Of a DNA stretch of 64,000 nt, positions 3,461-58,241 are shown one piece after another. This stretch comes from a virus (Duplodnaviria > Heunggongvirae > Uroviricota > Caudoviricetes), in the IMG/VR virus record IMGVR_UViG_3300035520_000763, positions 71,032 to 135,031 of that record. The stretch is one strand, 5' to 3'. Under the pieces are notes generated by a model. It saw only the letters and a list, made by a program, of their open reading frames with translations, was not told the DNA's origin and did no database searches. Every line of letters starts with the position of its first letter. The first letter of the stretch is position 1. The translations under genes were made by a program, and so were the position numbers.

Positions 3461-3874
3461 GTGATTAAAGTGATAACATTGAAGCAACTGGTAAACGAGC
3501 AAAAATGGAATGAAATGAGTGATATTGATGTTATTAAAACTTTCTTTGATATGAATGATATAGAAGAGGAAGGAATTGATCTGATTTCAGAATTGACTAA
3601 GACAAAGATACAAAAAACGAAGCGAAAACATTACATGGTAGAAGAATGGGCTTGTATGCTGCCATCTAAATACCTGTATGAAAACTACGATTTAGATACG
3701 GCAGATAGATTACATCTTATGGAACTCAATTATCTGGTCAACGGTGGTGAGTTGTCAAATAGATTTCTTAAATGGGCAACGGAAAATGTTCCTAATATTA
3801 TTAGACCAGAAGCATATTTCAATCCATTACTGGATTATTTAGAGGAACGTGGTATTAAATTTAAAGAGAAATAA
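3461..3874 (+). CDS. hypothetical phage protein (GTG start)
   Basis: ORF track; RBS AAGAGGTGA. Confidence 0.5.
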   Translation: MIKVITLKQLVNEQKWNEMSDIDVIKTFFDMNDIEEEGIDLISELTKTKIQKTKRKHYMVEEWACMLPSKYLYENYDLDTADRLHLMELNYLVNGGELSNRFLKWATENVPNIIRPEAYFNPLLDYLEERGIKFKEK

Positions 3875-3899: not shown

Positions 3900-4235
3900 A
3901 TGTGGTGTGAAGGTTTATCTTTAAACGAGTGGGAACAAAAGTATGATGACACAAAAGAATTATCATATCTTCATGGAAGGTGTGATGAGTGGCTTGTTAA
4001 AAATTATAGGAAACATGATAAGTGTGTTACGATTACAGAATATAGAGATAAGTTAGATAGATTATGTTTGATGCATTGCTGCTTGTTACGAGATGATGAA
4101 TATATTGATGTACGAGGAAATACAAAGAATTTTCAGGAAATTATAGATGCTTTTGATTACGGTGAATATAACGTGGAAATATATAATACATTGAATGATT
4201 TCAAAGAGAAAATGAAACAGCTTGGTATTTTATAG
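3900..4235 (+). CDS. hypothetical phage protein
   Basis: ORF track (3849..4235); ATG at 3900 after GGAGGTG RBS. Confidence 0.5.
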   Translation: MWCEGLSLNEWEQKYDDTKELSYLHGRCDEWLVKNYRKHDKCVTITEYRDKLDRLCLMHCCLLRDDEYIDVRGNTKNFQEIIDAFDYGEYNVEIYNTLNDFKEKMKQLGIL

Positions 4236-4353
4236 ATGAATGCAGAATTTAATCACAAAAGATGATGAGCCGTAAGCTATCATAGAATTAACAAAAATTG
4301 ATATTAAACACAGTCTGGCATTGTTGAAAAAAGAAAAGATATGGAGGCAAAAA

Positions 4354-4557
4354 ATGAGTATGATTAGAATAAAAACAGACGATTTTCTATGTATTTACAA
4401 AGATAAAATGATAGAAATTTCTGCAAAAACGAAAGAAGAAGCAAATAAAAAAGCACAGAATTATTTTAAGATTGATGAAGAAAATGGTGCGGATTTTTGT
4501 ATATGCAAAATACCTAGTAGTATTGGCGTACTTATAGATTTAGATTTTGAATTTTAA
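4354..4557 (+). CDS. hypothetical phage protein
   Basis: ORF track (4321..); ATG at 4354 after GGAGG. Confidence 0.5.
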   Translation: MSMIRIKTDDFLCIYKDKMIEISAKTKEEANKKAQNYFKIDEENGADFCICKIPSSIGVLIDLDFEF

Positions 4558-10506: not shown

Positions 10507-11517
10507 ATGTCAGATAACAGGTATGCAACCAAGAGAAAAGGGAAAACAGAAAAAGATCCATTTTGGAATTTACAGGATATTAAAAATCTGGTTGAATGGT
10601 TTGAAAATAATAATAAGTGGGATGGATATTTAATCACTATGTTCGAACTCCTTCTTGGTAGACGAATTGGTGATACAGTTTCAATGGTGTGGTCAGATTT
10701 TTATTATGAGAATGGAAGACGCAGAGACGAAATTGTAACCGTTGTTGAACAAAAAACGGGAAAGACAAATGAAGTTCCTTTGACAAATTTAGCATTTGAA
10801 GCAATAGAAAAATATTGCCAGAATACTAAAATCAATCCAATGGAACATTATAATGAATATATTTTCAATTTTCCTTGTAAAACGAAATGGATTAAGCGAA
10901 AGGATAATCCGATTTATAAGCATAAAGAATGTGATGTAGAATTGTTCTGCAAAGTACTTGAAAAGACATATGAGAATGATAGAAAAGCTAAAATTGTTGA
11001 AAAATTTTATAATCAAAAGGAATACTCAAGCTTTGGTGACTATTTTTATTATGAGGTGGAGTATACGGACATTATTAAATGGACAACAGATACGTATCGT
11101 ATAATGTTTAACAAAGCAAAAAAAGCGTGTGGCATATCCTATGATGTCTCAACACATAGTTTCAGAAAATCTTTTGGTTATTGGATTCATCATACGCATC
11201 CATATGATCCAGACTGTTTGTTGTCTCTCCAAAAGATGTTTGGTCACGCAACATTGCAACAGACAATGGATTATATAGGATTAACAAAAGAAAAGAACAG
11301 GATGTACATTAATGACCATAGTGAAATGATTAGGAAAACATTAGATGGCAACGCAGATGAAATCATAAAGAATAGTCCTGTTATTTCTCTTAAAACAGAA
11401 GATTATGGGAAAATAATTAAGACAATAATAGATATGTGCAGAGAAAATGAAAATTCTGATATGGAAATATATCAGATGGCAATTAATATGGGAAACGAAT
11501 TAAGAGTTGTGAAATAA
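10507..11517 (+). CDS. int: tyrosine site-specific recombinase / phage integrase
   Basis: R in LLLGRRIGD (box I), HSFRKSFGYWIHH (H-x-x-R box II) and catalytic Y in TMDYIGL; size 336 aa. Confidence 0.8.
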   Translation: MSDNRYATKRKGKTEKDPFWNLQDIKNLVEWFENNNKWDGYLITMFELLLGRRIGDTVSMVWSDFYYENGRRRDEIVTVVEQKTGKTNEVPLTNLAFEAIEKYCQNTKINPMEHYNEYIFNFPCKTKWIKRKDNPIYKHKECDVELFCKVLEKTYENDRKAKIVEKFYNQKEYSSFGDYFYYEVEYTDIIKWTTDTYRIMFNKAKKACGISYDVSTHSFRKSFGYWIHHTHPYDPDCLLSLQKMFGHATLQQTMDYIGLTKEKNRMYINDHSEMIRKTLDGNADEIIKNSPVISLKTEDYGKIIKTIIDMCRENENSDMEIYQMAINMGNELRVVK

Positions 11518-23262: not shown

Positions 23263-25383
23263 ATGATAATGGATGCGAATTTAAATCAAATCGTAAATAC
23301 ATATTTCGAAAATAATGCTTATAAACTACATAAAATAGTGGACAAAATCTTATGGAAGCTAAACTTTCATGATGTTGACCACGAAGATTTTTATTCGTTA
23401 TCACATGAACTTTTTTATAAAAGTCTTGAAGATTACGATAGGTCAAAATCTTTTGATGCTTTTTTGTATTCTTGTCTCTATAAAAAATTTTGTACGGAAA
23501 TGACAGGAACAAATAGAGATAAGCGAAGTAATAATATTAAAGTTGAAAAAAAAGATGAAGACGGAAATATTATTAAAGACGAAACAGGAAATGTAGTAAC
23601 AGAAAAAATTAAAATTCCAGACATTTCTTTTGATACACCGGTAGGAGACGATGATAATACTCAACTTAAAGATATGATTAGTTCTAAATTTAACGTTGAA
23701 TCAAGTTTATTTTCTTCTTGCAGCGAGAATATGGAAAATTATATCAATAATTTGGATGAAATACAAAAGAATATCGCAGAAATGATAGGAGAAGGATTTA
23801 ATTCTTCTGAAATAAAAGGAAAGCTTAATTTAAGTGATAAAGAATATTCTCAACAAATATCTGTCATGAAATCTTATGAAAAAAGAAAAGTTTTTTATGA
23901 AGAAGAGAGCAATGATATGGAGGAAGAAAGCATGAATACAGGAGATTTAGTAGCAAATACGACAGAAACTTACAGAAATACAAGCTATAGTATTGAATCA
24001 ATAAGTAAACAATTGTCAAAAAAACAACTTAGAGATGACCATATTCTTCAAAGGCATAGCGGGCAATGGAAAAATTTTGCAAAAAGTGAATTGATTTCTG
24101 ATATTCTTCGTGGGAAATCTCTTACGCAAATTATTGTATCGGAAGAAATAAAAAATAATCTGCGTATGAAGTGGTTAATTGATGGTAAGCAGCGTTGCAC
24201 AACATTGCATGATTATCTGCTTGACGGATTTGCGATTCAGAAAAATGTTAAGAATTATAACATAAGATATCAGGCGGCAAAACTTGATGAGAATGGAAAT
24301 GAAATATTAAATGAAGAAGGTTTTGCTGTAATGGAAACCAAAGAATTTGATATTCGTGGCAAAAAGTTCTCGCAATTACCTGAAGAATTACAGGATATAT
24401 TCAAGGATAGACAGATACCTGTTTTATATAATGAAAATTGTACAAAAAAAGATATAGCAGATGATATAGCCAGATTTAATAGAAGTAGGTCGATGAATAC
24501 TGCACAGCTTGGTTGGTTAGGCTTAGATGAAGAATTTGCAGAATTGGTTGAAAAGATGACAAAAATGAAATTCTTCCAACCGAATTTCAAGGGAAGTTCT
24601 TATACCGATAATAACCACACATCAAGTGCAATAAGAAGAATAATTGTTGAAAGCATTTTTGTTTCAGATTTCATTAATGAATATAGTAAAGATTTTGAAA
24701 AGAAATGCACTTATTTATCAGAAGAAGCCAGCGATTCAAATTTCACAGAATTTTACAGCTATGTTGAACGGCTCACTTCCGTATCCAATGAAGATGTTGC
24801 AGATATGTTTAACGCTAAAAATTCATTTTTGTGGTTTGGATTATTTTCAAGATTTGATAATTATGGGCTTGATGATACAAAATTTATTGATTTTATGAAA
24901 GCCTTTAAAGAGTCTTTACATAAAAAGAAAATTAACGGTATATCTTACGAAGAACTTGAAGGTAAGGGGACAAAAGATAAAAACATAGTCACAAAAAAAA
25001 TGCAGCATTTGGAACAACTTATGAATGAATATTTACATAGTGACATAGAAAAAGCAAACAAAGAAGTTGATGAAGAAGATTCATTAAATATCGTTAAATA
25101 CATAAATCCTGATGTAACGGAAAAAGATATTCAGGATTATAAAGAAGATTTAGAAATATTAACTCTTGAAGTTAATAATAAAAGTAAATTGTTAGATGAA
25201 CGTAATATACCATCATTAATTGCCATGATTGCATATGGCTATACAAAAGATGAAGCAATTGATGAGTGGTTTGTAGATTACTTTAGGAGAAATAATATGT
25301 ATACACTAAATCAAAAACGCAATTTGCAACTAATGATTGAAGACTTTAATGAATTCAAAAAACAGAAGGGGGCGGTTGCGTAA
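23263..25383 (+). CDS. 706-aa fusion protein: N-terminal sigma-70-family-like region 2 + region 4 (aa ~30-215) fused to a DUF262 (ParB/Srx-fold) domain and a C-terminal helical domain
   Basis: Region-2-like motif ED-F-YSLSHELFYKSLEDYDRSKSFDAFLYSCLYKKF...R.KR; region-4-like HTH LDEIQKNIAEMIGEGFNSSEIKGKLNLSDKEYSQQISVMK; DUF262 signature HILQRHSGQW...LIDGKQRCTTL; single uninterrupted ORF with RBS AAGGCGG. Confidence 0.55.
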   Translation: MIMDANLNQIVNTYFENNAYKLHKIVDKILWKLNFHDVDHEDFYSLSHELFYKSLEDYDRSKSFDAFLYSCLYKKFCTEMTGTNRDKRSNNIKVEKKDEDGNIIKDETGNVVTEKIKIPDISFDTPVGDDDNTQLKDMISSKFNVESSLFSSCSENMENYINNLDEIQKNIAEMIGEGFNSSEIKGKLNLSDKEYSQQISVMKSYEKRKVFYEEESNDMEEESMNTGDLVANTTETYRNTSYSIESISKQLSKKQLRDDHILQRHSGQWKNFAKSELISDILRGKSLTQIIVSEEIKNNLRMKWLIDGKQRCTTLHDYLLDGFAIQKNVKNYNIRYQAAKLDENGNEILNEEGFAVMETKEFDIRGKKFSQLPEELQDIFKDRQIPVLYNENCTKKDIADDIARFNRSRSMNTAQLGWLGLDEEFAELVEKMTKMKFFQPNFKGSSYTDNNHTSSAIRRIIVESIFVSDFINEYSKDFEKKCTYLSEEASDSNFTEFYSYVERLTSVSNEDVADMFNAKNSFLWFGLFSRFDNYGLDDTKFIDFMKAFKESLHKKKINGISYEELEGKGTKDKNIVTKKMQHLEQLMNEYLHSDIEKANKEVDEEDSLNIVKYINPDVTEKDIQDYKEDLEILTLEVNNKSKLLDERNIPSLIAMIAYGYTKDEAIDEWFVDYFRRNNMYTLNQKRNLQLMIEDFNEFKKQKGAVA

Positions 25384-27362: not shown

Positions 27363-27550
27363 AAGCGGAAATAGAAGTCGCATTTTCTTGGGAAAATTTT
27401 AAAATCGAAGTTCTCTAAGCATATATTTTCAAAAGTGCTTAGAGAAATAATTAGTGAAAACTAAGGTGGATTTGACCGCCTAAAGTTGAGGGTATAGCCA
27501 CTCAACAAATACTATGTAAAGTGCTATGTAAAATAGAATACATGTTTGAG

Positions 27551-27575
27551 GTTTGAGAACCTTATAAGTTTACAT
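27551..27575. repeat. 25-bp direct repeat copy 1 GTTTGAGAACCTTATAAGTTTACAT (contains palindrome CTTATAAG)
   Basis: Read from sequence; partial GTTTGAG copy immediately 5'. Confidence 0.7.
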
Positions 27576-27616
27576 GGTAATCAAACGTGCGTAGTTTGGG
27601 AGTAAAGGGATTACTT

Positions 27617-27641
27617 GTTTGAGAATCTTATAAGTTTACAT
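27617..27641. repeat. 25-bp direct repeat copy 2 GTTTGAGAATCTTATAAGTTTACAT (1 mismatch)
   Basis: Separated from copy 1 by a 41-bp unique spacer; about 90 bp upstream of the TnpB/Cas12-like ORF. Confidence 0.7.
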
Positions 27642-27729
27642 AACAATTAAATGCTTAAAGGTACTCTTTATTTAATAATTAGCATGAGACAATTATGATT
27701 TTATATAATAATTAAATGAAAGGATAAAA

Positions 27730-29361
27730 ATGGATAACGAAAATAAGAATATTAGTACAAGAAAAATAGTTTTAATACCAGAATATAGTGATACAAAAAA
27801 ATGGATAAAAAAGGTTAATGATTTTGCCATTTCTGATTATAAACATAAAATAGAAGTCAAAGAAGAACAGATTAAGAATATAAAAAAGAAAAAGCTAAAT
27901 AAAGAGGATGAGACAAGACTTTTAGAGAAATATCAAAAACAACTAGATACTTTAAATGATAAATTAAATACATATATTGAAACGAAAGAAATTACAAAAG
28001 AAATCGTTAATAATTACACATACAATCTGGTAAGAGAATCAATGGAATCAGAGGTAAGAAGAAAGAATTATATATTATCATGGGCTTTTAGCAAAATGAT
28101 TGAAAACGGTGTTCAGTATATGGATATTAAAGATAGGACAAAATTTATTAAAGATATGATGAATACTGCATATAGAGTAAAAGGCTCTAAAAAGGGAAGT
28201 GCTTTTGATGATGTTGAAATTAGTAATATTTTAAATGGATATGGTATAGCTTTTTCTAAGGATTTTACAAAAAAGTTAATTAAAGATGTGAATGATGGAT
28301 TATTAGACGGAAAAATTAGTCAAAGAACATATAAGATGGATTCGCCGTTTACGATAGCAAAGTCAACAATGGGATTCTCACATGATTATGATTCTTATGA
28401 AGAGTTATGCGAACACATCAATGATAAAGATTGTAATATGTATTTTGATTTTGGTGGAAATCAAAAACCGACAATTGCAAGATTTAAAATACATACCGGA
28501 TATAAAAAGAATAAGCAAGAACTAAACGCAACATTGTTAAAGATATATTCAGGAGAATACAAATATTGTGGCAGTAAAATAGAGTTAGATAAAACGGGTA
28601 AAAAAATAATACTCGATTTGTCATTTGAAATTCCTACAAAAGAAGTATTTTTAGATGAAAACCGAACTTGCGGAATTGATAGAGGTATTAAAATTCCGGC
28701 TGTATGTGCCTTAAATGATGATAAATATACTAGAGGATATTACGGTTATTGTGATGATTTGTTTGCTAAAAGAACGAAAATTCAAAATCAAAGAAAAAGA
28801 TTGCAGAAATCATTAACTTATACGAGTGGAGGGCATGGAAGAGATAAAAAATTAAAGGCACTTAAAAGATTGGAAGAATATGAGAAGAATTTTGTGGAAA
28901 ATTATCTTCACCATATCTCAAAACAATGTGTTGACTTTGCAGTAAAAAATCATTGCAAATACATAAATATTGAAAATTTAAAAGGCTATGATGCAGATGA
29001 TAAAATACTCCGAAATTGGTCTTATTATAAATTAGAGCAGTACATTACATATAAAGCTGAAAGATACGGAATTATTGTTAGAAAAATTAATCCTTGTTTT
29101 ACATCACAAGTATGTAGTTTTTGTGGAAGTTATGAAAAAGGGCAAAGAAAAACACAGTCAGATTTTTTGTGCGCTAATGAAAATTGTACAAGCCATTCTG
29201 AAAAACACAAATATATAAATGCGGATTTTAATGCAGCAAGGAATATTGCAATGTCCACATTATATTACGATGGAGAAATTACAAATAAACAGATAGAAGA
29301 AGCCGCAAATTATTATGGAATTGTATTAGATGAAAATAAGGATAAAGAACTGGTGGCATAG
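27730..29361 (+). CDS. TnpB/Cas12f-like RuvC-domain nuclease (543 aa), no adjacent TnpA
   Basis: RuvC-I CGIDRGIK, RuvC-II YINIENLKGY (E), TnpB-type C-terminal motifs NPCFTSQVCSFCG (zinc finger) ... CANENC ... INADFNAARNIA (RuvC-III D); about 170-aa N-terminal extension with coiled-coil relative to the 367-aa TnpB at 33625. Confidence 0.8.
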   Translation: MDNENKNISTRKIVLIPEYSDTKKWIKKVNDFAISDYKHKIEVKEEQIKNIKKKKLNKEDETRLLEKYQKQLDTLNDKLNTYIETKEITKEIVNNYTYNLVRESMESEVRRKNYILSWAFSKMIENGVQYMDIKDRTKFIKDMMNTAYRVKGSKKGSAFDDVEISNILNGYGIAFSKDFTKKLIKDVNDGLLDGKISQRTYKMDSPFTIAKSTMGFSHDYDSYEELCEHINDKDCNMYFDFGGNQKPTIARFKIHTGYKKNKQELNATLLKIYSGEYKYCGSKIELDKTGKKIILDLSFEIPTKEVFLDENRTCGIDRGIKIPAVCALNDDKYTRGYYGYCDDLFAKRTKIQNQRKRLQKSLTYTSGGHGRDKKLKALKRLEEYEKNFVENYLHHISKQCVDFAVKNHCKYINIENLKGYDADDKILRNWSYYKLEQYITYKAERYGIIVRKINPCFTSQVCSFCGSYEKGQRKTQSDFLCANENCTSHSEKHKYINADFNAARNIAMSTLYYDGEITNKQIEEAANYYGIVLDENKDKELVA

Positions 29362-29568
29362 CCATCAATATTGAAAGTAGTTACATAAAAATATGTCTAT
29401 TGTAATGATAAACATAGTAATTACAAGTAATGGTAGATTTTGATGCCAAAGGGTGAGAGAAATTACTACTCATCAAAACCTGCGTATTTTTAATTTTGAG
29501 CCTTTGGATATATATAAAAGTACAAGGGTACAAAACGTGGCGTATAACATAATAAAAGGAGATAAAGA
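29362..29568 (+). ncRNA. candidate structured non-coding RNA (omega-RNA/guide-scaffold-like) downstream of the TnpB/Cas12-like gene
   Basis: 207-bp non-coding gap with 8-bp inverted repeat TTTTGATG...CATCAAAA (29438..29478) and CCAAAGG/CCTTTGG pair; no ORF; purely structural inference. Confidence 0.25.
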
Positions 29569-29958
29569 ATGACAAAATTAGAAGGTTTTTCAAAGGTGGC
29601 AGTTGTTAAGTACGGTTGTTTTGCATATTATTTTGCTATTTATGATGATGGCAATGATTATAAGGTGGGAGATATGGCTGTATTTTCGGGAAATACTAAT
29701 CCTGCAAAGATTACTGAAATCATTAGCGAAAAAGAATGGAAAAAACGTATGTTTCCAAAGAATATAACGGCAGAAGTTATTGGTAAGATTGACATTTCGG
29801 CATACGAAAAGCGTCTTGAACAGCGTGAATTAAAAAAAATTATAAAGGAAACAATGGAAAATCGAAAAAAGAAAATTCAGGAAGAATTGGACGATGAGTA
29901 TTATGCCAGTAAGGATGAAGATTATGCTGAATTATTAAGAAAGTATGAAAGTTTATAG
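29569..29958 (+). CDS. hypothetical phage protein
   Basis: ORF track; RBS AAAGGAGA. Confidence 0.5.
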   Translation: MTKLEGFSKVAVVKYGCFAYYFAIYDDGNDYKVGDMAVFSGNTNPAKITEIISEKEWKKRMFPKNITAEVIGKIDISAYEKRLEQRELKKIIKETMENRKKKIQEELDDEYYASKDEDYAELLRKYESL

Positions 29959-31580: not shown

Positions 31581-32465
31581 ATGAAGGAAAAGAAGAGAAG
31601 TGGATTAGTAGGTGGTATTACATTAGCAGTTGTAATTGTAATTGTTTTAATTTTAGTGGCGATATGTACAAAAAAAGTACCTGCGGGCTATGTGGCGGTA
31701 CAGTATTCGGTTAATGGGGGAATCAAAGATGAAGTCCTTACTCAGGGTTGGCACTTTGTATCACCGGCAACGAAGACAAAGCTGTATACGGTAGGTATTG
31801 AACAGAGTTATTTAACATCGGGCAAAGATGGCGATTCTAAGGATGATGAGAGTTTTACAGCCAGCTCATCTGAGGGTAAAGCTATGACAATTGACCTTAC
31901 ATTTACATATCAGTATCAGCAAGAAGATGTAGTTGGTGTATTTACAAGATTTAAGGGGCAATCTGGTAAGGAAGTAAGAGATAATTTTATTAAGCCTAAT
32001 ATTATATCGTGGACTAAGGAAGTTGTAGCAAGATATAAGGTGTCAGATATTCTCGGTTCAGAAAGAGCAGCAGTTAATTTAGCTTTAACAGACTACTTAT
32101 CAGAAAAATTTGAGAGTTACGGCATTACAATTAGTAACGTATCCTTAATCAATATTGAGGTTGATGAGGAAACTCAGGAAGCTATCAATGCCAAAATTAC
32201 TGCGCAGCAAAACGCGGAAACGCAGAGCATTAATAACCAGACAGCAATTGACAAGGCTGCCGCCGAAGCACAGGTTAAACTTACGGAAGCACAGGCTGAA
32301 GCTGATGCACAGAAGATTAAGGCTGATGCAGAGGCAGAGGCTAACAAGAAAATTGCTGAATCACTTACATCTGAACTCATCGAAAAGATTAAGTATGAGC
32401 AGTGGGATGGAGCATTGCCACAGGTTCAGGGGACAAGTACACCAATTATTAACATGGCAGACTAA
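31581..32465 (+). CDS. SPFH/band-7 (stomatin/prohibitin-like) membrane protein with C-terminal A/E/K/Q-rich coiled coil
   Basis: N-terminal TM (GGITLAVVIVIVLILVAI) followed by SPFH-like core (...GYVAVQYS..., ...ISNVSLINIEVDEETQEAINAKITAQQ...). Confidence 0.7.
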   Translation: MKEKKRSGLVGGITLAVVIVIVLILVAICTKKVPAGYVAVQYSVNGGIKDEVLTQGWHFVSPATKTKLYTVGIEQSYLTSGKDGDSKDDESFTASSSEGKAMTIDLTFTYQYQQEDVVGVFTRFKGQSGKEVRDNFIKPNIISWTKEVVARYKVSDILGSERAAVNLALTDYLSEKFESYGITISNVSLINIEVDEETQEAINAKITAQQNAETQSINNQTAIDKAAAEAQVKLTEAQAEADAQKIKADAEAEANKKIAESLTSELIEKIKYEQWDGALPQVQGTSTPIINMAD

Positions 32466-33190: not shown

Positions 33191-33607
33191 ATGAGAAAGA
33201 ATAGAACAAATCCAAATTATAAAAGTAAAAATCATAGTAAATTCATACTTACATATCACATCATATTTGTTTGTAAATATCGTAAAAAACTTCTTACTAA
33301 ATATGGTGAAGACATAAAGCAGATAATGTTTGATATAAGCAAGAAGTATGATTTTGAAATTAAAGAAATGGAAGTTGATAAAGATCATATTCATATGATG
33401 ATAGAATCTGTTCCAAGGTTATCACCATTACAGATTGTAAGAACATTAAAACAGCAATCTACTATTCAAATATGGAGAATGTATAATAAAGAGTTAAAAC
33501 ACCATTATTGGAATGAAAACACCTTTTGGACTGATGGATATTTCTGTTCAACAATTGGAGAAGTAAGTGGTAAGATATTAAAGCGTTATATACAGAACCA
33601 AGGATAG
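33191..33607 (+). CDS. tnpA: IS200/IS605-family Y1 (HuH) transposase TnpA
   Basis: HuH motif DHIHMMIE and catalytic-Tyr region TDGYFCSTIG; 138 aa. Confidence 0.85.
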   Translation: MRKNRTNPNYKSKNHSKFILTYHIIFVCKYRKKLLTKYGEDIKQIMFDISKKYDFEIKEMEVDKDHIHMMIESVPRLSPLQIVRTLKQQSTIQIWRMYNKELKHHYWNENTFWTDGYFCSTIGEVSGKILKRYIQNQG

Positions 33608-33624
33608 AAAGGAGACGGTTATAG

Positions 33625-34728
33625 ATGTTAAAAGCTTATAAATATAGATTATATCCAAATAAAGAACAGCAAGAATATTTTGCAAAATGTTTCGGTTGTG
33701 TACGATTCATCTATAATCGTATGCTTTCAGACAAGATTGAATATTATAAAGAAACAAAACAGAAACTTAATAATACACCTGCTCAGTATAAAAAAGAATT
33801 TGAATGGCTAAAAGAGGTTGATTCACTTGCATTAGCAAATGCTCAAATAAATTTACAGGCTGCTTATAACAACTTTTTCAAGCGTCCAGAAGTAGGATTC
33901 CCAAAATTCAAAAGTAAGAAAAACCACTATTACTCTTACACTACTAATAATCAGGGTGGAAATATTCATGTATCTGATAGATATATCAAACTTCCTAAGA
34001 TTGGTTTAGTAAGAGTAAAGAAACATAGAGTGTTTGCTGGTAAAATAAAATCTGTAACTGTTTCTAAAAATCCAAGTGGTAAGTATTTTGTGTCTGTATT
34101 GGTAGAATGTGAAGAACAAGAAAAACTTCAACAATCTAATACAAATGTAGGGATCGACTTAGGAATAAAAGAATTTGCTATTACTTCTGATGGAGAAAAA
34201 ATAGAAAATCCAAAGTTTCTTAAAAAATCAGAAAATAGACTTAGGAAATTACAAAAGGATTTGTCTCGCTGTCAAAAGGGCAGTAAGAATAGAGAAAAAT
34301 GCAGAATAAAAGTTGCAAAACAACATGAAAAAATAACTAACCAAAGAAAAGATTTTTTACATAAACTTTCAAAACGAATTATTGACGAAAACCAAGTCAT
34401 TTGTTTAGAGAATCTTAAAATAAAGAATATGTTAGGAAATCATAAATTGGCAAAATCAATATCCGATGTGTCATGGAGCGAATTTATAAGACAGTTGGAA
34501 TATAAAGCTGAATGGTATGAAAGAGAAATTATAAAAGTAGATACTTTCTATTCGTCAAGTCAGATATGTTCTAATTGTGGTCATAAAGATGGAAAGAAAG
34601 AACTTTCTGTAAGAGAATGGATTTGTCCTGTATGTGGAACATACCATGACAGAGATATTAATGCAGCTATAAATATCCTGAATGAAGGATTGAGAATAAG
34701 AAGCGTAGGGACTACGCCGATAGCCTAG
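33625..34728 (+). CDS. tnpB: IS605 OrfB / TnpB RuvC-like RNA-guided nuclease
   Basis: N-terminal [11 protein letters not shown], RuvC-I GIDLGIK, Ruv[15 protein letters not shown]-terminal zinc finger and RuvC-III motifs SSQICSNCG ... CPVCG ... [10 protein letters not shown]; 367 aa. Confidence 0.85.
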
Positions 34729-44313: not shown

Positions 44314-45150
44314 ATGGAGAAGTTCTTGTTTGATGGAGAAAAAGCTGAAGAGACGAATAATAAGAATTGGTATAAACTCAGTAAAATCCCAATAGAAATT
44401 ACAGAAAAACAATCCGATAAGCATATTAATAAAAGATATGAGTTAAAAGCTGGTTATGTACCCACAGAGTTAATGCCAAATATTATTACAATGGAAATGT
44501 ATGATAGTGAAGAATATAAAGATGTTATTGGATTATATTCACTAAAATATGATACAGAAGATGGCGGTTATGAACCTATTGAATTTAATATAGAAAAAAT
44601 ATATTCAAGGAAAGATTATGAATTTGTCCCAAACAAATATAATGCAGAGGTAGATTTACTTACACAAATTGAATATCCAGAGGTTGCTTATCAAGACAAA
44701 CCATGTAAAGTAACACATAGTCAAATGTTTTCTATTATTAAAAATTATGTGAAACAAAACATAGATACAAGTTGTGCAAAAATCGAATCCGATTATGATT
44801 TTCATTTTGAAGTATCAAGAAATATTACTTTAGCAGATCCATATACAGTAAGAGTTGATGTAAATAATTCTGTATTACATAGCAGAAGGAAACCTAAATG
44901 GGTTAATAAAATGATAGCTGATAAGAAAGTAACTGTCTTAAATATTAAAAGAGACTTAGGTGATAAATCTTATGGAGATGATTGCTGTGTAGCACCTGAA
45001 ATTATTGGAGAGAATTATACGGATCTTTCTCAAAAGGTGGACAAATACTTAGAGGAATTAATGAAAACAATCAATATAAAATATTGTGAATGTCCTAATT
45101 GTAAAGGTTGGGGAATAGTGGAGGTAGAAGATGAAAACAAAATTCAGTAA
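44314..45150 (+). CDS. hypothetical phage protein (C-terminal CECPNCKG)
   Basis: ORF track. Confidence 0.5.
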   Translation: MEKFLFDGEKAEETNNKNWYKLSKIPIEITEKQSDKHINKRYELKAGYVPTELMPNIITMEMYDSEEYKDVIGLYSLKYDTEDGGYEPIEFNIEKIYSRKDYEFVPNKYNAEVDLLTQIEYPEVAYQDKPCKVTHSQMFSIIKNYVKQNIDTSCAKIESDYDFHFEVSRNITLADPYTVRVDVNNSVLHSRRKPKWVNKMIADKKVTVLNIKRDLGDKSYGDDCCVAPEIIGENYTDLSQKVDKYLEELMKTINIKYCECPNCKGWGIVEVEDENKIQ

Positions 45151-49607: not shown

Positions 49608-50330
49608 ATGGGTTCAAAGAGCAGAATAGTTAATAACATTCTGCCAATAATTCAACAAAGATTAAAAGATTATAATATTAAAACATATATTGAGCCATTT
49701 TGCGGCGGGCTTAATGTAATAGACAAAGTGGTTTGTAATAAGAAAATTGCATCAGATAATCATAAATATCTTATTGCCATGTTCCAAAATTTAGACAAAA
49801 TTCAAGAACTTCCCGATTTTGTAACAAAAGAACATTATTCAGAAGTAAGAGATTGCTTTAATGAAGGAGAAGTATATTTTCCAGATTGGTACATAGGAGC
49901 AATCGGTTTTCTTGCAAGCTATAACGGAAGATTTTTTGATGGTGGATATTCAGGATTAGTCAACACGAAAGCTGGTACTGTAAGAAACTATTATGACGAA
50001 GCAAAAAGAAATTTAATAGAACAGATACAAAACTTGCAAGATATAGAGTTTCGATGCTGCGATTACAGAGAATATACAGATTATGAAGATTGTTTGTTCT
50101 ATTTAGATCCACCATATAAGGGTAAGAAACAATATGGTTCAAGTAAGGAATTTAATCATGATGAGTTTTGGAACTGGTGTAGACATATGAGTGAGAAAAA
50201 TATTGTACTTATTAGTGAGCATGAGGCTCCTTCGGATTTTGAATGTATCTGGGAGCAACCGGTTAAAAGAACAATTGACAATAATAAGCGTGTAAATGTA
50301 GTTGAAAGATTATTCGAGATTAGAGAGTGA
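49608..50330 (+). CDS. dam: Dam-family (D12-class) DNA adenine methyltransferase
   Basis: Motif I IEPFCGGLNV and motif IV YLDPPYKG characteristic of Dam-like MTases. Confidence 0.75.
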   Translation: MGSKSRIVNNILPIIQQRLKDYNIKTYIEPFCGGLNVIDKVVCNKKIASDNHKYLIAMFQNLDKIQELPDFVTKEHYSEVRDCFNEGEVYFPDWYIGAIGFLASYNGRFFDGGYSGLVNTKAGTVRNYYDEAKRNLIEQIQNLQDIEFRCCDYREYTDYEDCLFYLDPPYKGKKQYGSSKEFNHDEFWNWCRHMSEKNIVLISEHEAPSDFECIWEQPVKRTIDNNKRVNVVERLFEIRE

Positions 50331-53109: not shown

Positions 53110-54150
53110 ATGACTATTGAACAGATCAAAACAAAATTAAAGTCAGAAGAATATGATTTTCTTAAAAATAATGAACATTTGGGAAGTAATATTATTTTAT
53201 TAACTCTAGGTGGTAGCTATGCTTACGGTACTAACATTAATACATCTGATTATATGAGCGATTTAGACTTCAGAGGAGTTGCATTAAATAAAAAAGAAGA
53301 AATTTTAATAGGGCACCCTTTCGAACAAGTTGATAATCGTGAGACAGATACCGTGATTTATAGTTTCAATAAGATTATAAAACTTCTTACAAATTGTAAT
53401 CCTAATGTTATTGAGCTTTTAGGCGGAAAGAAGGAATATTATTTATATAAATCAAAAATTGGAGATGAGTTGATTGAGAATAGAAAGTTATTCTTATCTA
53501 AAAAAGCTGCTTTTACATTTGGGGCTTATGCAAGTAGTCAATTATATCGTTTAAATCAGAAATCGGCACATCAATTATCACAAGCTGGATTAGAACAGCA
53601 TATCCTAAAGACGCTTGAATTTATGAAGACTGATTTCAATAAGAAATATTCAGATTTTGCTGAAGATCAGATTAGTCTTTATATTGATAAGGCAATACAG
53701 GAAGGATATGATACAGAAATTTTTATGGATATAAAGCTGACTCATTATCCTTTACGTGATTATTGTTCAATGTGGAGTGAATTGCAAAATACGGTTAAAG
53801 CATATGGAAAGATTGGAAAACGTAATGAGAAAGCGATTGAACATGGGAAAATCGCAAAGCATATGATGCATTTGATTCGCCTCTATATGATGTGTCTGGA
53901 TATTCTTGAAAAAGAGAAGATTATCACATACAGAGAAAAAGAGCATAATCTGTTAATGGATATTCGTAATGGTAAATTCCTTGATGATAATGACCAACCA
54001 ATTCCAGAGTTCTTTGAAATGGTTAATGATTATGAGAAGAAACTGGATTATGCGAAAGAGAATACTAATCTGCCGGATAATCCAGATTATAATGCAATCA
54101 ATGAGTTTGTTGCTAGTGTCAACGAAAGGGTGGTAAAAGGTGAAATTTAA
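53110..54150 (+). CDS. predicted nucleotidyltransferase (Pol-beta-fold, PF10127-like; GS...DLDFRG and NPNVIELL motifs)
   Basis: Motifs TLGGSYAYGT...SDLDFRGVA...NCNPNVIELLGG read from translation. Confidence 0.55.
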   Translation: MTIEQIKTKLKSEEYDFLKNNEHLGSNIILLTLGGSYAYGTNINTSDYMSDLDFRGVALNKKEEILIGHPFEQVDNRETDTVIYSFNKIIKLLTNCNPNVIELLGGKKEYYLYKSKIGDELIENRKLFLSKKAAFTFGAYASSQLYRLNQKSAHQLSQAGLEQHILKTLEFMKTDFNKKYSDFAEDQISLYIDKAIQEGYDTEIFMDIKLTHYPLRDYCSMWSELQNTVKAYGKIGKRNEKAIEHGKIAKHMMHLIRLYMMCLDILEKEKIITYREKEHNLLMDIRNGKFLDDNDQPIPEFFEMVNDYEKKLDYAKENTNLPDNPDYNAINEFVASVNERVVKGEI

Positions 54151-55495
54151 TGTAAATATACCGACAGATGCGAATGAGCTAATCCATACATTACAGAAAA
54201 ATGGACACTCAGCATATGTGGTTGGTGGTTGTGTCAGGGACAGCGTATTAGGTAGAATCCCGCATGATTGGGATATATGTACATCAGCTACACCATCTGA
54301 AATGTTAGAAATTTTCAAAGATAGAAGAATAATTGAAACTGGTTTGCAGCATGGAACGGTAACTGTTGTAGTGAACAATGAGCCTTATGAAATTACTACC
54401 TTTCGGATTGACGGTAATTATTCAGATAATCGTAGACCAGATAATGTAACATTCACAGATAGTTTAAGAGAAGATTTAAAACGAAGAGATTTTACTATCA
54501 ACGCAATGGCTTATAACGATGAAGAAGGTTTGATTGATCCGTTTCATGGTATGGAAGATATTAATCATAGAAAAATAGATTGTGTTGGTTCAGCAAAAGA
54601 TAGATTTAGTGAAGATACTCTAAGAATACTTCGTGCAATAAGATTTGCAGCACAGTTGGATTTTGTAATATCTCCTGATACTGATTGGGAAATTCATCGA
54701 CAGTACAAGAGTTTAGAGAATATATCTATTGAAAGAATTAATAGTGAATTTTGTAAAATCGCTTCTTCAGATACTTTTTGTATTCAGCTTCTTTTATATA
54801 ATGATGTATTTTCTTTATTTATCCCAGAATTAAAGAATATGATTGACTTCCCTCAAAACAATCCGTACCACGAATATGATGTGTTTGACCACACCATTCA
54901 TGCATTAGAACGATGTGATAGTAAGGATTTAACTGTGAGATTAGCTGTGTTATTTCATGATTTTGGGAAAACACATTGTTATCAGGATGGAGAAGATGGT
55001 ATTAGGCATTTCAAAGGACATGGAAAAGTAAGTGCCGAAATGACTGATTGGATTATGAAATGTCTTAAATTTGATAATAAGATGAGAAATAATGTTGTAG
55101 AACTTGTTTATTATCACGATGCTACATTTGAAGTTGGAAAGAAGTATATAAAGAGATGGCTTAATAAAATTGGGGTAAAACAGTTTAAACGATTATTAGA
55201 AGTAAGAAAAGCTGATATAAAAGGTCAAAAAGCAGAATACGAAAAAGAACGAATAGAGAAAATAAATAATATAGAGAAGATTCTGGAAGAAGTATTACAG
55301 GAGCAAGAATGTTTCTCTTTGAAAAATTTGGCGGTCAACGGCAATGACTTAATTGAAATGGGTTATAAATCCGGAAAAGAATTAGGTAAAACATTGAATC
55401 TGCTCTTACAGATGGTTATTGATGGTGATTGCCCAAATGATAAAGAGAAATTATTACAAGAAGCAGAAAATTTGTGGATGGAAAGGAGAATGTAA
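54140..55495 (+). CDS. cca: CCA-adding tRNA nucleotidyltransferase with HD phosphohydrolase domain
   Basis: Head motifs VVGGCVRD...WDI (DxD), RRDFTINAMAY, LRAIRFAAQL; HD motif VLFHDFGK; 451 aa. Confidence 0.8.
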   Translation: MKFNVNIPTDANELIHTLQKNGHSAYVVGGCVRDSVLGRIPHDWDICTSATPSEMLEIFKDRRIIETGLQHGTVTVVVNNEPYEITTFRIDGNYSDNRRPDNVTFTDSLREDLKRRDFTINAMAYNDEEGLIDPFHGMEDINHRKIDCVGSAKDRFSEDTLRILRAIRFAAQLDFVISPDTDWEIHRQYKSLENISIERINSEFCKIASSDTFCIQLLLYNDVFSLFIPELKNMIDFPQNNPYHEYDVFDHTIHALERCDSKDLTVRLAVLFHDFGKTHCYQDGEDGIRHFKGHGKVSAEMTDWIMKCLKFDNKMRNNVVELVYYHDATFEVGKKYIKRWLNKIGVKQFKRLLEVRKADIKGQKAEYEKERIEKINNIEKILEEVLQEQECFSLKNLAVNGNDLIEMGYKSGKELGKTLNLLLQMVIDGDCPNDKEKLLQEAENLWMERRM

Positions 55496-55498
55496 GTA

Positions 55499-56386
55499 TT
55501 GAAATGTTTTTACCATACGGATGAGGATGGCAAGTGTAGTGCATTTTGGGTAAAAGAACTTGCAAAACACTATGATAATTATGATATAGAATTTATACCT
55601 ATTAACTACGGTATGGATTTTCCGTTTGACTCTATTAGAGAAAATGAACAGGTATACATTGTTGATTATTCAATCTTTCCTAATGAAATGGAGAAGTTAT
55701 TAGAGATAACAAAAGATGTTACGTGGATAGATCATCATATTTCTGCAATTAACAGATACAATACTCCTGAGTTTTCGCATTTACATATTAAGGGATTGAG
55801 ATATGACGGAATTGCCGGTTGTATGCTTACATATTGCTACTTGAAACATATGGTTAAAGTGGAGCAGAAAAATGGAAGTATAGTTTGTACTCCGTTCGAT
55901 ATTTCAATGACAGAAGATGCCCCTATGTTTACAACGTATATAGCAGATTTTGATGTGTGGAAATTTGAATATGAACCCACAAAAGCATTTGAAATGGGTT
56001 TACAGTTATATGATTTAGATCCAAATAGTAGAGTGTGGAAGTCATTTTATTATGAAAGTGAGATTCAAAATATTATCAAAGACGGTTATCTTTTATTAGA
56101 TTATCGTGATAAATGGTCTAAAGAATATTGCGAATGTACTGGCTTTGATGTGGAATTTGAAGGATATAAATGTTTTGCTGTAAATTTAGCGATGATTAGT
56201 AGCGACAATTTTAAATCAATAAATGAAGAAGATTATGATATGTTTATTGGCTTTTCATATAATGGCAGATCATGGAATTATTCACTCCGTTCTACAAAGG
56301 TTGATTGTTCCAAGATTGCTATGAAATATGGTGGCGGTGGACATAAAGGTGCATCAGGTTTCAGTTCAGATAGGTTGTTGTTTTAA
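55499..56386 (+). CDS. DHH/DHHA1-family phosphoesterase (NrnA/RecJ-like)
   Basis: Motif I HTDEDGKCSA, motif III WIDHH, DHHA1 GGGGH; TTG start per ORF track. Confidence 0.65.
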   Translation: MKCFYHTDEDGKCSAFWVKELAKHYDNYDIEFIPINYGMDFPFDSIRENEQVYIVDYSIFPNEMEKLLEITKDVTWIDHHISAINRYNTPEFSHLHIKGLRYDGIAGCMLTYCYLKHMVKVEQKNGSIVCTPFDISMTEDAPMFTTYIADFDVWKFEYEPTKAFEMGLQLYDLDPNSRVWKSFYYESEIQNIIKDGYLLLDYRDKWSKEYCECTGFDVEFEGYKCFAVNLAMISSDNFKSINEEDYDMFIGFSYNGRSWNYSLRSTKVDCSKIAMKYGGGGHKGASGFSSDRLLF

Positions 56387-57457: not shown

Positions 57458-57548
57458 ATATAAGTTGGAAGATAAATAAGAAAGTAGGTGATATTACATA
57501 TTTGAAAATAATACATATGAGCTATTTCAAGGTAAATGTCTTAAATTG

Positions 57549-58241
57549 ATGAAAGATATTCCAGATAAATCTATTGATATGATCTTATGCGATTTGCCAT
57601 ATAACCGTACTCAAAACAAATGGGATATAGTAATCCCATTCGACAAAATGTGGGAGGAATATACTAGGATAATAAAGAACAATGGTGCGATTTGTTTATT
57701 TGCAGATGGCATGTTTATGGCGGATCTAATGGAGAGTAATAAAAAATTATGGAGATATAATTTGGTATGGAATAAAGTTTTAACTTCTGGATTTTTAAAT
57801 GCTAATAGGCAGCCATTAAGACAGCATGAGGAAATTTGTGTTTTTTATAAGAAACAACCCACATATAATCCGCAAAAGGTAAAAGGGAGTAAGAATCATA
57901 GCAAGGGCAAAGAAAAGAAGAATAAAAATAATAATTACAACGATTTTGAATTTGTAGATAATTCGGATGAATTAGGCGATATGAAACATCCAACAAGTAT
58001 TTTGACTTTTCAAAAACCACATCCGTCAACTATGGTGCATCCAACACAGAAGTCAGTTGAACTTTGTGAATGGTTAATTAAGACATATACAAACGCAGGA
58101 GATACAGTATTGGATAATTGTATGGGTTCCGGTACAACAGGCGTTGCTGCTCTGAATCTTGACAGGAAGTTTATAGGAATGGAACTAGATGAGAATTATT
58201 TTAATATAGCGGAGAAGAGAATAAAAGAATTGGAGAAATAA
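57549..58241 (+). CDS. beta-class DNA methyltransferase (motif IV DLPY before motif I GSGTTGVAA); ParB-MTase-like
   Basis: Motifs ...SIDMILCDLPYN... and VLDNCMGSGTTGVAA; conserved N-terminal LFQGKCLKL segment encoded in frame upstream without a canonical start. Confidence 0.65.
   Translation: MKDIPDKSIDMILCDLPYNRTQNKWDIVIPFDKMWEEYTRIIKNNGAICLFADGMFMADLMESNKKLWRYNLVWNKVLTSGFLNANRQPLRQHEEICVFYKKQPTYNPQKVKGSKNHSKGKEKKNKNNNYNDFEFVDNSDELGDMKHPTSILTFQKPHPSTMVHPTQKSVELCEWLIKTYTNAGDTVLDNCMGSGTTGVAALNLDRKFIGMELDENYFNIAEKRIKELEK

Follow-up and report, generated by a model that had tools for sequence, protein, structure and literature searches.

A probable adaptation-less CRISPR-Cas12f system with two guide RNA modules, carried by a large AT-rich phage in its accessory arm

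Introduction

Does a solitary RuvC nuclease gene in phage DNA belong to a CRISPR (short palindromic repeats that are clustered and regularly interspaced) system of the phage's own, or is it a domesticated transposon nuclease with its own guide RNA? The question is raised by an open reading frame (ORF) of 543 residues at positions 27730-29361, + strand, of a 64,000-nucleotide (64-kb) stretch of caudoviricete DNA (IMG/VR record IMGVR_UViG_3300035520_000763, positions 71,032 to 135,031), hereafter called the window. A first-pass annotation of the DNA letters had put forward both alternatives, a minimal phage-borne CRISPR-Cas12f system and a domesticated TnpB. In this study, the locus was followed up computationally. 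The first alternative is supported by Cas12f profiles and predicted fold, by the CRISPR repeats and by spacers of related loci that match phages, and the evidence favours it over the second. Most likely, the locus is a type V-F1 CRISPR-Cas12f system, self-contained and adaptation-less, which a large AT-rich phage carries in its accessory arm; the host of this phage probably belongs to the gut Lachnospiraceae.

The 543-residue protein is assigned to Cas12f

The motifs read earlier in the ORF (GIDRG, INIENL and NADFNAARNI) are present as claimed, and a zinc finger of the TNB domain type (CxxC...CxxxxC), located between RuvC-II and RuvC-III, precedes NADFNAARNI. Across 29 aligned full-length homologues (50-61% identity), the residues D317, E415, D499, C462, C465 and C481 do not vary, and C486 is almost invariant. 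At the level of this alignment, the view that the triad is intact and the protein not a dead TldR-like repressor is upheld, and a nuclease-dead derivative of the TldR or dCas12f-sigma type was rejected because the D-E-D triad is both intact and invariant.

Among the Pfam models, only the C-terminal Cas12f1-like TNB domain (PF07282, 1e-15) passes, and the match to OrfB_IS605 is sub-threshold. The protein passes the broad NCBIfam guided_TnpB superfamily model (151 bits, cutoff 100) and fails both IS200_TnpB (50.9 bits, cutoff 425) and Cas12f2 (NF049972; 100.9 bits, curated cutoff 450). The PADLOC models Cas12f (PDLC01699) and Cas12u3 both match residues 84-520, with 300 bits (5.8e-90) and 298 bits (2.7e-89), respectively, whereas the TnpB of an insertion sequence (IS) in the same window reaches only about 75 bits on these models. 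A sequence search against the Protein Data Bank (PDB) returned CnCas12f1 (8HR5) at 1.6e-58, followed by Al3Cas12f (2.9e-49), RhCas12f (2.4e-42), AsCas12f (about 1e-35) and Un1Cas12f1 (1e-22), with ISDra2 TnpB and Cas12p at about 2e-3; the matched entries are named as in PMC13186708.

A monomer model was created with AlphaFold2 from the family alignment (mean pLDDT, the predicted local distance difference test, 85.8). When the model was compared with the PDB by Foldseek, ranks 1-22 were all Cas12f or dCas12f chains and TnpB appeared only from rank 23. The top match was again CnCas12f1 (8hr5), at 2.6e-27 over 548 aligned columns, and the model is aligned with it from end to end. The helices of the predicted N-terminal region span residues 23-53, 58-85 and 90-125. 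Because Foldseek ranks Cas12f chains first, this region is, according to the model, an ordinary Cas12f recognition lobe and no novel extension. The protein had been placed in the large-TnpB/Cas12f range on account of such an extension; the assignment to Cas12f holds, but the supposed extension is the normal lobe.

The complete IS200/IS605 element of the window (33191-34728, + strand) served as an internal contrast. It encodes a TnpA Y1 transposase (PF01797, 3.5e-35) and, at 33625-34728, a TnpB that scores 516.9 bits on IS200_TnpB and shares 24% identity over 243 residues with the 543-residue protein. Unlike this true IS, and in agreement with the first-pass annotation, the gene at 27730-29361 has no TnpA or IS ends, and neither the ORF list nor Pfam gave a Y1 transposase adjoining it. 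An IS-borne TnpB with a degraded TnpA was rejected on the score of 50.9 bits against IS200_TnpB. Membership in Cas12p, CasPhi (Cas12j) or CasLambda (Cas12l) was rejected on the PDB sequence search and Foldseek: Cas12p (9jfs) has an E-value of 2e-3 by sequence and 3.9e-10 by fold (rank 26), versus 2.6e-27 for Cas12f, and CasLambda is found at rank 31 or lower. Taken together, the profile, PDB and fold searches, proposed earlier as a check, place the protein in Cas12f, type V-F1 (formerly V-U3), with an intact RuvC triad and zinc finger, and not among ordinary IS-borne TnpB proteins. The gene is called cas12f below.

The upstream repeats and guide module 1

Upstream of cas12f, a repeat finder detected three members of one repeat family on the + strand, with start-to-start distances of 66 and 65 nt and the order R1-S1-R2-S2-R3. 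The 25-nt copies reported before (GTTTGAGAAyCTTATAAGTTTACAT) were found at 27551-27575 and 27617-27641. The geometry derived from them, a 25-bp repeat with a 41-bp spacer, had to be revised: because the copies stand in a 66/65-nt register, each real unit consists of a repeat of 36 nt and a spacer of 30 nt, a geometry shared by relatives. R1 (GTTTGAGAACCTTATAAGTTTACATGGTAATCAAAC, 27551-27586) was delimited by the repeat finder, the covariance model described below and the RNA fold. It is followed by the 30-nt spacer S1 (GTGCGTAGTTTGGGAGTAAAGGGATTACTT, 27587-27616), which fills the register between R1 and R2, occurs once in the window and is the only clear guide of the phage. Over 35 nt, R2 (27617-27652) shares 86% identity with R1; the divergence of its 3' third (AACAATTAAAT) is typical of the degenerate terminal repeats of relatives. 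The register then gives a putative old spacer S2 (27653-27681), and the repeat finder a strongly degenerate repeat R3 (27682-27717, 69% identity). R3 stops 12 nt short of the start codon of cas12f, right against the ribosome-binding site, and the upstream arrays of relatives likewise reach to the start codon. In the window itself, the array is minimal, with a single good spacer.

A leader resembling a trans-activating CRISPR RNA (tracrRNA) precedes R1 at 27461-27550, + strand, as delimited by the covariance model and the minimum-energy fold. Its 5' part comprises stem 1 (27465-69 with 27476-80), AAAG, stem 2 (27485-90 with 27501-06) and AAA; an anti-repeat (TACTATGTAAA, 27510-27520) and a linker with GTTTGAG at its end make up the 3' part. 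The minimum-energy fold of this module (-32.9 kcal/mol, z -3.3) contains the same three helices as the covariance model. Nucleotides 27569-27579 of R1 pair with the anti-repeat, which leaves a single-stranded 3' end of 7 nt beside the spacer. Between the upstream gene and the module, RNA folding gave a 12-bp hairpin (GUUCUCUAAGCA...UGCUUAGAGAAA, 27411-27446, + strand), and the fold of 27405-27616, which includes it, has a z-score of -5.5. The hairpin may extend the tracr-like scaffold on its 5' side, or it may serve the upstream gene as a terminator.

A conserved RNA element flanks the gene on both sides

Covariance folding of the repeat and the downstream tail, a further check that had been suggested, showed that the RNA element is present in both flanks. 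In the window, the covariance model has exactly two hits, both on the + strand, at 27461-27586 (98.6 bits) and 29428-29536 (97.7 bits), and the next-best score is 15 bits. In 72 related loci it finds 190 copies, 190 of 190 on the strand of the gene. The conserved leader of the relatives reads, from 5' to 3', a hairpin with an AUUUnn loop, AAAG, a GGUGAG...CUCACC hairpin, AAA, the anti-repeat and a linker ending UUUGAGG, directly after which the first repeat begins; the anti-repeat is complementary to the 3' half of the repeat of its own array. Single-sequence folds recover this leader architecture in five of six modules, with the last 7 nt of the repeat unpaired beside the spacer.

With a hand-specified structure and 14 modules, 92.9% of the cells are paired, versus 78% in shuffles and 29-42% with slid partners, and both partners have changed in 13 of 22 pairs. 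For 110 distinct modules, in an alignment fitted to the covariance model itself, so that its figures are to be read with that caveat, 93.6% of the cells are paired and double changes occur in 19 of 22 pairs; in the anti-repeat:repeat helix, 94% are paired and 10 of 11 pairs have changes on both sides. Across both sets the paired fraction is 92.9-93.6%, versus 77-78% when shuffled and 29-44% with slid partners. The anti-repeats are also matched to their own repeats: own pairing averages 10.1 of 11 positions, versus 8.1 of 11 when the repeat is taken from another module at that locus. For the window, own pairing is 11/11 for module 1 and 9/11 for module 2, and cross pairing is 6/11 in either direction. 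Chance can be excluded because of the model scores, the shuffle and slide controls and the recurrence of the element beside homologous genes. By these computational criteria the leader is tracrRNA-like, with an anti-repeat complementary to the repeat.

Assemblies of Roseburia, Butyrivibrio and Erysipelotrichaceae have the same RNA element beside their Cas12f genes, which are more distant. No Rfam family matched it at gathering or E-value thresholds, the tRNA search found none, and the upstream sequences of 100 unique modules showed no conserved promoter. The downstream modules of five related loci (L014, L015, L018, L021 and L066, at about 4090-4300 or 3670-3870) carry an insertion of about 120 nt in the loop of the second hairpin; the guide scaffold seems to tolerate large insertions.

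Downstream of cas12f, the first-pass annotation had seen an ORF-free structured tail and proposed an omega-RNA-like scaffold. The region 29362-29568 does lack + strand ORFs of at least 40 residues, but the covariance model and the alignment of modules identify the tail as a second tracr-like leader with a solo repeat rather than an omega-RNA. The leader of this guide module 2 (29428-29500, + strand) has the architecture of module 1 with a weaker anti-repeat (ACCTGCGTA). The 36-nt repeat (CCTTTGGATATATATAAAAGTACAAGGGTACAAAAC, 29501-29536, + strand), given by the covariance model, has no second repeat downstream. At the position of a spacer follows, as read from the sequence, GTGGCGTATAACATAATAAAAGGAGATAAA (29537-29566, + strand), which forms the 5' untranslated region (UTR) and ribosome-binding site of the next gene, starting at 29569.

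Related loci carry arrays with exchangeable spacers

About 600 protein clusters match the protein at E <=0.001; the best 120 are nearly all 507-579 residues long, and many of these 120 are on contigs of 100-230 kb. A scan of related loci with the single protein as query gave no matches, whereas a scan of IMG/VR with the family alignment gave 259 relatives, of which 80 loci, mostly on viral contigs of 50-213 kb, were kept for the locus-level analysis (handles such as L013 denote such loci). As relatives overall lie mostly on contigs of 50-230 kb, the former description of a 64-kb-class phage is probably incorrect. The exact protein with the same flanks is present in two independent samples. Among species-representative genomes, the sole full-length relative is on a 173-kb contig binned with a Treponema metagenome-assembled genome; the next relatives align over the C-terminal 330-380 residues or so only, at 40-46% identity, and come from Roseburia, Lachnospiraceae, Butyrivibrio, Anaerotignum, Clostridioides and Bacillus. 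One locus (L091), on a 190-kb scaffold of the isolate Roseburia sp. 1XD42-69, encodes a Cas12f with 46% identity over 382 residues, flanked by guide modules of the same type at 2195-2288 and 3681-3757; it may offer an experimentally tractable host or element.

In the relatives, cas12f is syntenic, has non-coding gaps on both sides and is neighboured by small phage-like ORFs and, downstream, by a conserved AAA ATPase, as in the window. In one example, the repeat GTTTTAGAACTTTATGAATTTACAAAGGTACTGAAC occurs in three to five copies upstream at a 66-nt register, ending at the start codon, and downstream of the gene there is a further array, built on another repeat variant. Counts based on hidden Markov models gave one to six modules per locus and one to five repeats per module, all co-oriented with the gene; 43, 103, 62, 20 and 7 of 235 modules have one, two, three, four and five repeats, respectively, and the last repeat is usually degenerate. 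Identical first repeats are followed by unrelated first spacers in different phages, for example by seven distinct spacers in eight modules. Because close relatives with identical repeats carry different spacers, the upstream repeats are, on this comparison, CRISPR repeats.

These arrays bear on two other explanations of the locus. It is scarcely credible that the upstream repeats are operator or iteron sites, or a chance occurrence, beside an ordinary or dead TnpB remnant. Each repeat does contain a palindrome (CTTATAAG) and the repeats lie just 5' of the gene, as operators might. However, 36 + 30 nt arrays recur in relatives with changing spacers, the repeat co-varies with the anti-repeat in an RNA-like structure, the model scores are far above background and the protein is assigned to Cas12f with an intact active site. 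The possibility, raised at the outset, that the repeats are repressor-bound operators is thereby contradicted by the changing spacers and the repeat:anti-repeat covariation.

A selfish homing element, in which, as with transposon-borne TnpB, the cassette flank after a solo repeat would act as guide, cassette-less phages would be cut and repair would copy the cassette in, is also very improbable. Modules with a fixed-flank "guide" after a solo repeat, that of the window included, are those 43 of 235, and the order of scaffold and then guide on one strand resembles an omega-RNA. Against homing, the gene is syntenic and the family shows spacer turnover of the CRISPR kind, TnpA and IS ends are absent nearby, unlike at 33191-34728, and the first 23 nt of the flank "guide" at 29537-29566 have no other copy in IMG/VR.

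Spacers of relatives match phages

From the relatives, about 200 unique spacers were extracted, three of which have identifiable protospacers. A spacer of L013 (2258-2286) matches at 29 of 29 nt in six phages of Lachnospiraceae, Agathobacter, Coprococcus and Dorea, which belong to Ca. Heliusvirales (49-58 kb), and at 28 of 29 nt in two more; the protospacer has the 5' flank TTTTT. A spacer common to L044, L045, L054, L055 and L056 matches at 30 of 30 nt in two viral contigs of 42-49 kb and, with three mismatches, in a third contig; its target lies in a 48-codon ORF with the 5' flank TTCA or TCCA. The third spacer, in L076 (4661-4690), matches the cas12f gene of the sister clade L034-L042 (about 3675-3704, the region encoding VVDYAIKH) with one to three mismatches and the 5' flank TTTG; at this target site L037 and L039, close relatives of L076, have seven differences. 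By sequence match, the L076 spacer is a case of a CRISPR aimed at the CRISPR effector of a rival. The protospacers of relatives point to Lachnospiraceae hosts and conflict between phages.

When the roughly 200 spacers were compared with GenBank phages by blast, only one gave matches; none matches the window, and the matches of one common spacer are confined to its own arrays. The region around the target in the viral contig L190 has no close relative among GenBank phages. The spacers of two phages, L003 (5748-5777) and L010 (about 4355-4385), share the 15-mer ACATTCCAACAGAAA at offset positions, so they would derive from overlapping protospacers in one commonly targeted sequence; a 20-mer from the overlapping spacers gave no match.

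Proposed mode of action and competing explanations

The anti-repeat of the leader would pair with its own repeat. Pairing in cis, with the first repeat, could give a natural RNA resembling a single guide; alternatively, processing could come first and the two could pair in trans. As in solved Cas12f complexes, the tracr-like scaffold would be bound by a Cas12f dimer, and the complex would scan DNA for a short 5' protospacer-adjacent motif (PAM) and a match to the 30-nt spacer before RuvC cuts. The phage's own arrays would be spared because the AAAC end of the repeat occupies the PAM position. As judged from the targets of relatives only, the role would be the destruction of co-infecting competitor phages. 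As no cas1, cas2 or cas4 is seen at the locus, new spacers would have to come from outside, for example from Cas1-Cas2 of the host or by recombination.

A more far-reaching version, which is put forward tentatively, is that scaffold, linker, first repeat and spacer form one self-folding RNA, a one-piece guide, and that the modules are independent, co-evolving cassettes, solo repeats using the fixed flanking DNA as guide, in an arms race of CRISPR against CRISPR with the cas12f genes of sister phages as targets. If true, such a guide would be an intermediate between the omega-RNA of TnpB and the split tracrRNA/crRNA (CRISPR RNA) of Cas12f.

Several observations weigh against the interpretation as a working CRISPR-Cas12f system. 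The search of phage databases suggested earlier did not yield a target for S1: it has no protospacer in any collection searched, neither in the window with up to three mismatches, nor in IMG/VR as an exact 30-mer or 20-mer, nor in GenBank phages by blastn, nor in metagenome contigs as an exact 22-mer. Ten 18-mer matches in metagenome contigs, with 6-11 mismatches outside the core, were rejected as chance matches. The spacer searches covered viral, phage and metagenome collections, and only three protospacer classes emerged from the roughly 200 spacers of relatives. The 5' flanks of these differ between effector clades (TTTG, TTTTT and TTCA/TCCA), so they do not define a PAM. S2 and R3 are degenerate, module 2 has a solo repeat only and weaker anti-repeat pairing, and its minimum-energy fold, unlike that of other modules, lacks the anti-repeat helix. 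A promoter and terminator scan showed no difference from shuffles. No structural phage genes were recognised in the 64 kb, and no cas1, cas2 or cas4 was found among the window ORFs of at least 200 residues scanned with Pfam.

Some of these points would suit a Cas12f system that is decaying or regulatory in this phage, with crRNA-like RNAs from R3 or the solo repeat tuning cas12f or a neighbour through partly matching sites. Degenerate R3 abuts the ribosome-binding site of cas12f, the solo repeat stands directly before the 5' UTR of the next gene, S1 is without a target in the collections searched, and regulation of cas genes by repeat-like RNAs has been reported (bioRxiv 10.1101/2023.03.03.530964). 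This explanation nevertheless appears unlikely: throughout the family the active-site residues are intact and do not vary, two independent samples contain the very same protein, R1 and S1 have the canonical form and the anti-repeat pairs at 11/11 positions, degenerate terminal repeats are normal in relatives whose spacers match phages, and a partial match to S1 elsewhere in the window is absent at up to three mismatches.

The guides might instead be aimed at the host chromosome or at resident elements such as defence islands, prophages or plasmids. Such a counter-defence role would fit the position of the locus among anti-defence genes, for example Gad1 and DNA methyltransferases, as well as the lack of an S1 match in the viral and metagenome collections searched; Cas12r of Thermus phages, with spacers against integrative elements, is a known case (bioRxiv 10.64898/2026.04.20.719267). 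However, all three protospacer classes lie in phage or viral contigs, in searches confined to the collections named above, and the role is considered rather improbable.

Relation to known systems

The building blocks of the proposed phage-borne Cas12f system are all known already, and a phage-encoded CRISPR of this sort is not unprecedented. The closest protein of solved structure by both sequence and fold is CnCas12f1 of Clostridium novyi (8HR5), which has the RuvC D-E-D residues and the TNB zinc finger in 497 residues, versus 543 here. CnCas12f1 and other V-F1/V-U3 effectors (AsCas12f, SpCas12f1 and Un1Cas12f1) use a tracrRNA and a crRNA with a 36-37-nt repeat, as computed for the present locus. 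The differences are that identity to CnCas12f1 is 29% in the Foldseek alignment, with no detectable sequence match over the first 185 or so residues, that the gene here is on phage-like contigs and there on a bacterial chromosome, and that at least two modules of tracr and mini-array are found here, versus one tracrRNA and one array there.

The second-best solved relative, Al3Cas12f (2.9e-49), belongs to the Alistipes uCas systems, which have 36-bp repeats, 29-32-bp spacers, a tracrRNA beside the array and no other cas genes (PMC13186708; bioRxiv 10.1101/2023.02.03.527072). The repeat and spacer sizes are alike, and here, too, no cas1, cas2 or cas4 is seen; these adaptation genes occur in some V-F loci, are missing from many and do not define the type. 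The uCas loci, however, are in Bacteroidota genome bins with one tracrRNA and one array, whereas the present family has one to six modules per gene and arrays of one to five repeats on both sides of it.

Phage-encoded compact type V systems include the Cas12p "hacker" (bioRxiv 10.1101/2025.01.20.633832) and Cas12r of Thermus Lalka phages (bioRxiv 10.64898/2026.04.20.719267). The locus resembles these and CasPhi/Cas12j and CasLambda/Cas12l in having a single small Cas12 and an array on a phage and in the role proposed in mobile-element conflict; the protein families are different. CasPhi and CasLambda are not known to need a tracrRNA.

Viral mini-arrays of one or two spacers against related viruses have been linked to inter-virus competition (review, PMC11656645), and one relative here likewise targets a sister clade. 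Such mini-arrays borrow the Cas proteins of the host and copy its repeats, in contrast to the present locus with its own effector and its own tracr-like RNAs. With the TnpB and omega-RNA of IS200/IS605, the locus shares the ancestral fold, the catalytic layout and the order of scaffold 5' and guide 3'. It differs in that TnpA and IS ends are absent, the 3' end of the gene does not contain the RNA, and there are CRISPR repeats with exchangeable spacers.

In the literature searched, no description was found of the phage clade of about 540 residues, of several tracr-plus-mini-array modules with co-varying anti-repeats flanking one effector, or of a phage spacer against the cas12f of a rival; the large survey by Al-Shayeb et al. 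2022 of CRISPR systems that viruses encode, which lay outside that search, may list the clade. The family would thus represent a new, widespread phage clade of Cas12f with an unusual, possibly new, multi-module guide layout.

The clade is large and conserved (the ~600 protein clusters), with intact Cas12f proteins of about 540 residues on contigs that look like big Lachnospiraceae gut phages. It would be a widespread case, in human and animal guts, of phages turning a CRISPR of their own on other phages, including the cas12f of a rival. Its ready-made guide RNA architectures are raw material for compact genome editors, anti-repeats tuned to their own repeats provide a natural data set on the co-evolution of tracrRNA and repeat, and the modules may help to explain how the one-piece RNA of TnpB became a two-piece CRISPR guide. 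Because the single spacer has no known target, the practical value of the window itself is limited.

Genomic context of the window

As the window lacks recognisable structural genes, its phage origin is deduced from its relatives in IMG/VR. All 28 ORFs of at least 200 residues are on the + strand, the GC content is 0.29-0.32 (0.31 overall), and a strongly positive GC skew (+0.2 to +0.38) persists throughout the 64 kb. The absence of cas1, cas2 and cas4 extends to the PADLOC families listed (25 of 91 matched; 110 + strand ORFs) and to the 4 kb around the gene in L003, L006 and L007.

A strong homologue of the Gabija anti-defence protein Gad1 (44314-45150, + strand; PF25705, 1.4e-62) suggests that this part of the genome serves counter-defence or is an accessory arm. 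At 53110-56386, + strand, genes for an RlaP-like nucleotidyltransferase, an HD-domain CCA-adding tRNA nucleotidyltransferase and a DHH/DHHA1 phosphoesterase form a cluster, which may be an RNA/tRNA repair set countering host anticodon nucleases. DNA methyltransferases of the D12 class N6-adenine and N6_N4 types are encoded at 49608-50330 and 57546-58241, respectively, both on the + strand; the PADLOC and PHROGs listings hint at further methyltransferase ORFs in the window. Also on the + strand are a tyrosine recombinase of the phage-integrase family (10507-11517, 1.2e-13) and an SPFH/Band 7 membrane protein (31581-32465, 5.3e-27). A 706-residue ORF (23263-25383, + strand) has a weak match of the GmrSD_N/DUF262 type at residues 262-389 (1.4e-5, below the cutoff). 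Its N terminus resembles, by eye, a 232-residue ORF of L190 (4121-4819), which adjoins the protospacer in that targeted viral contig. The PHROGs listing further gives a MazF-like growth inhibitor in the window.

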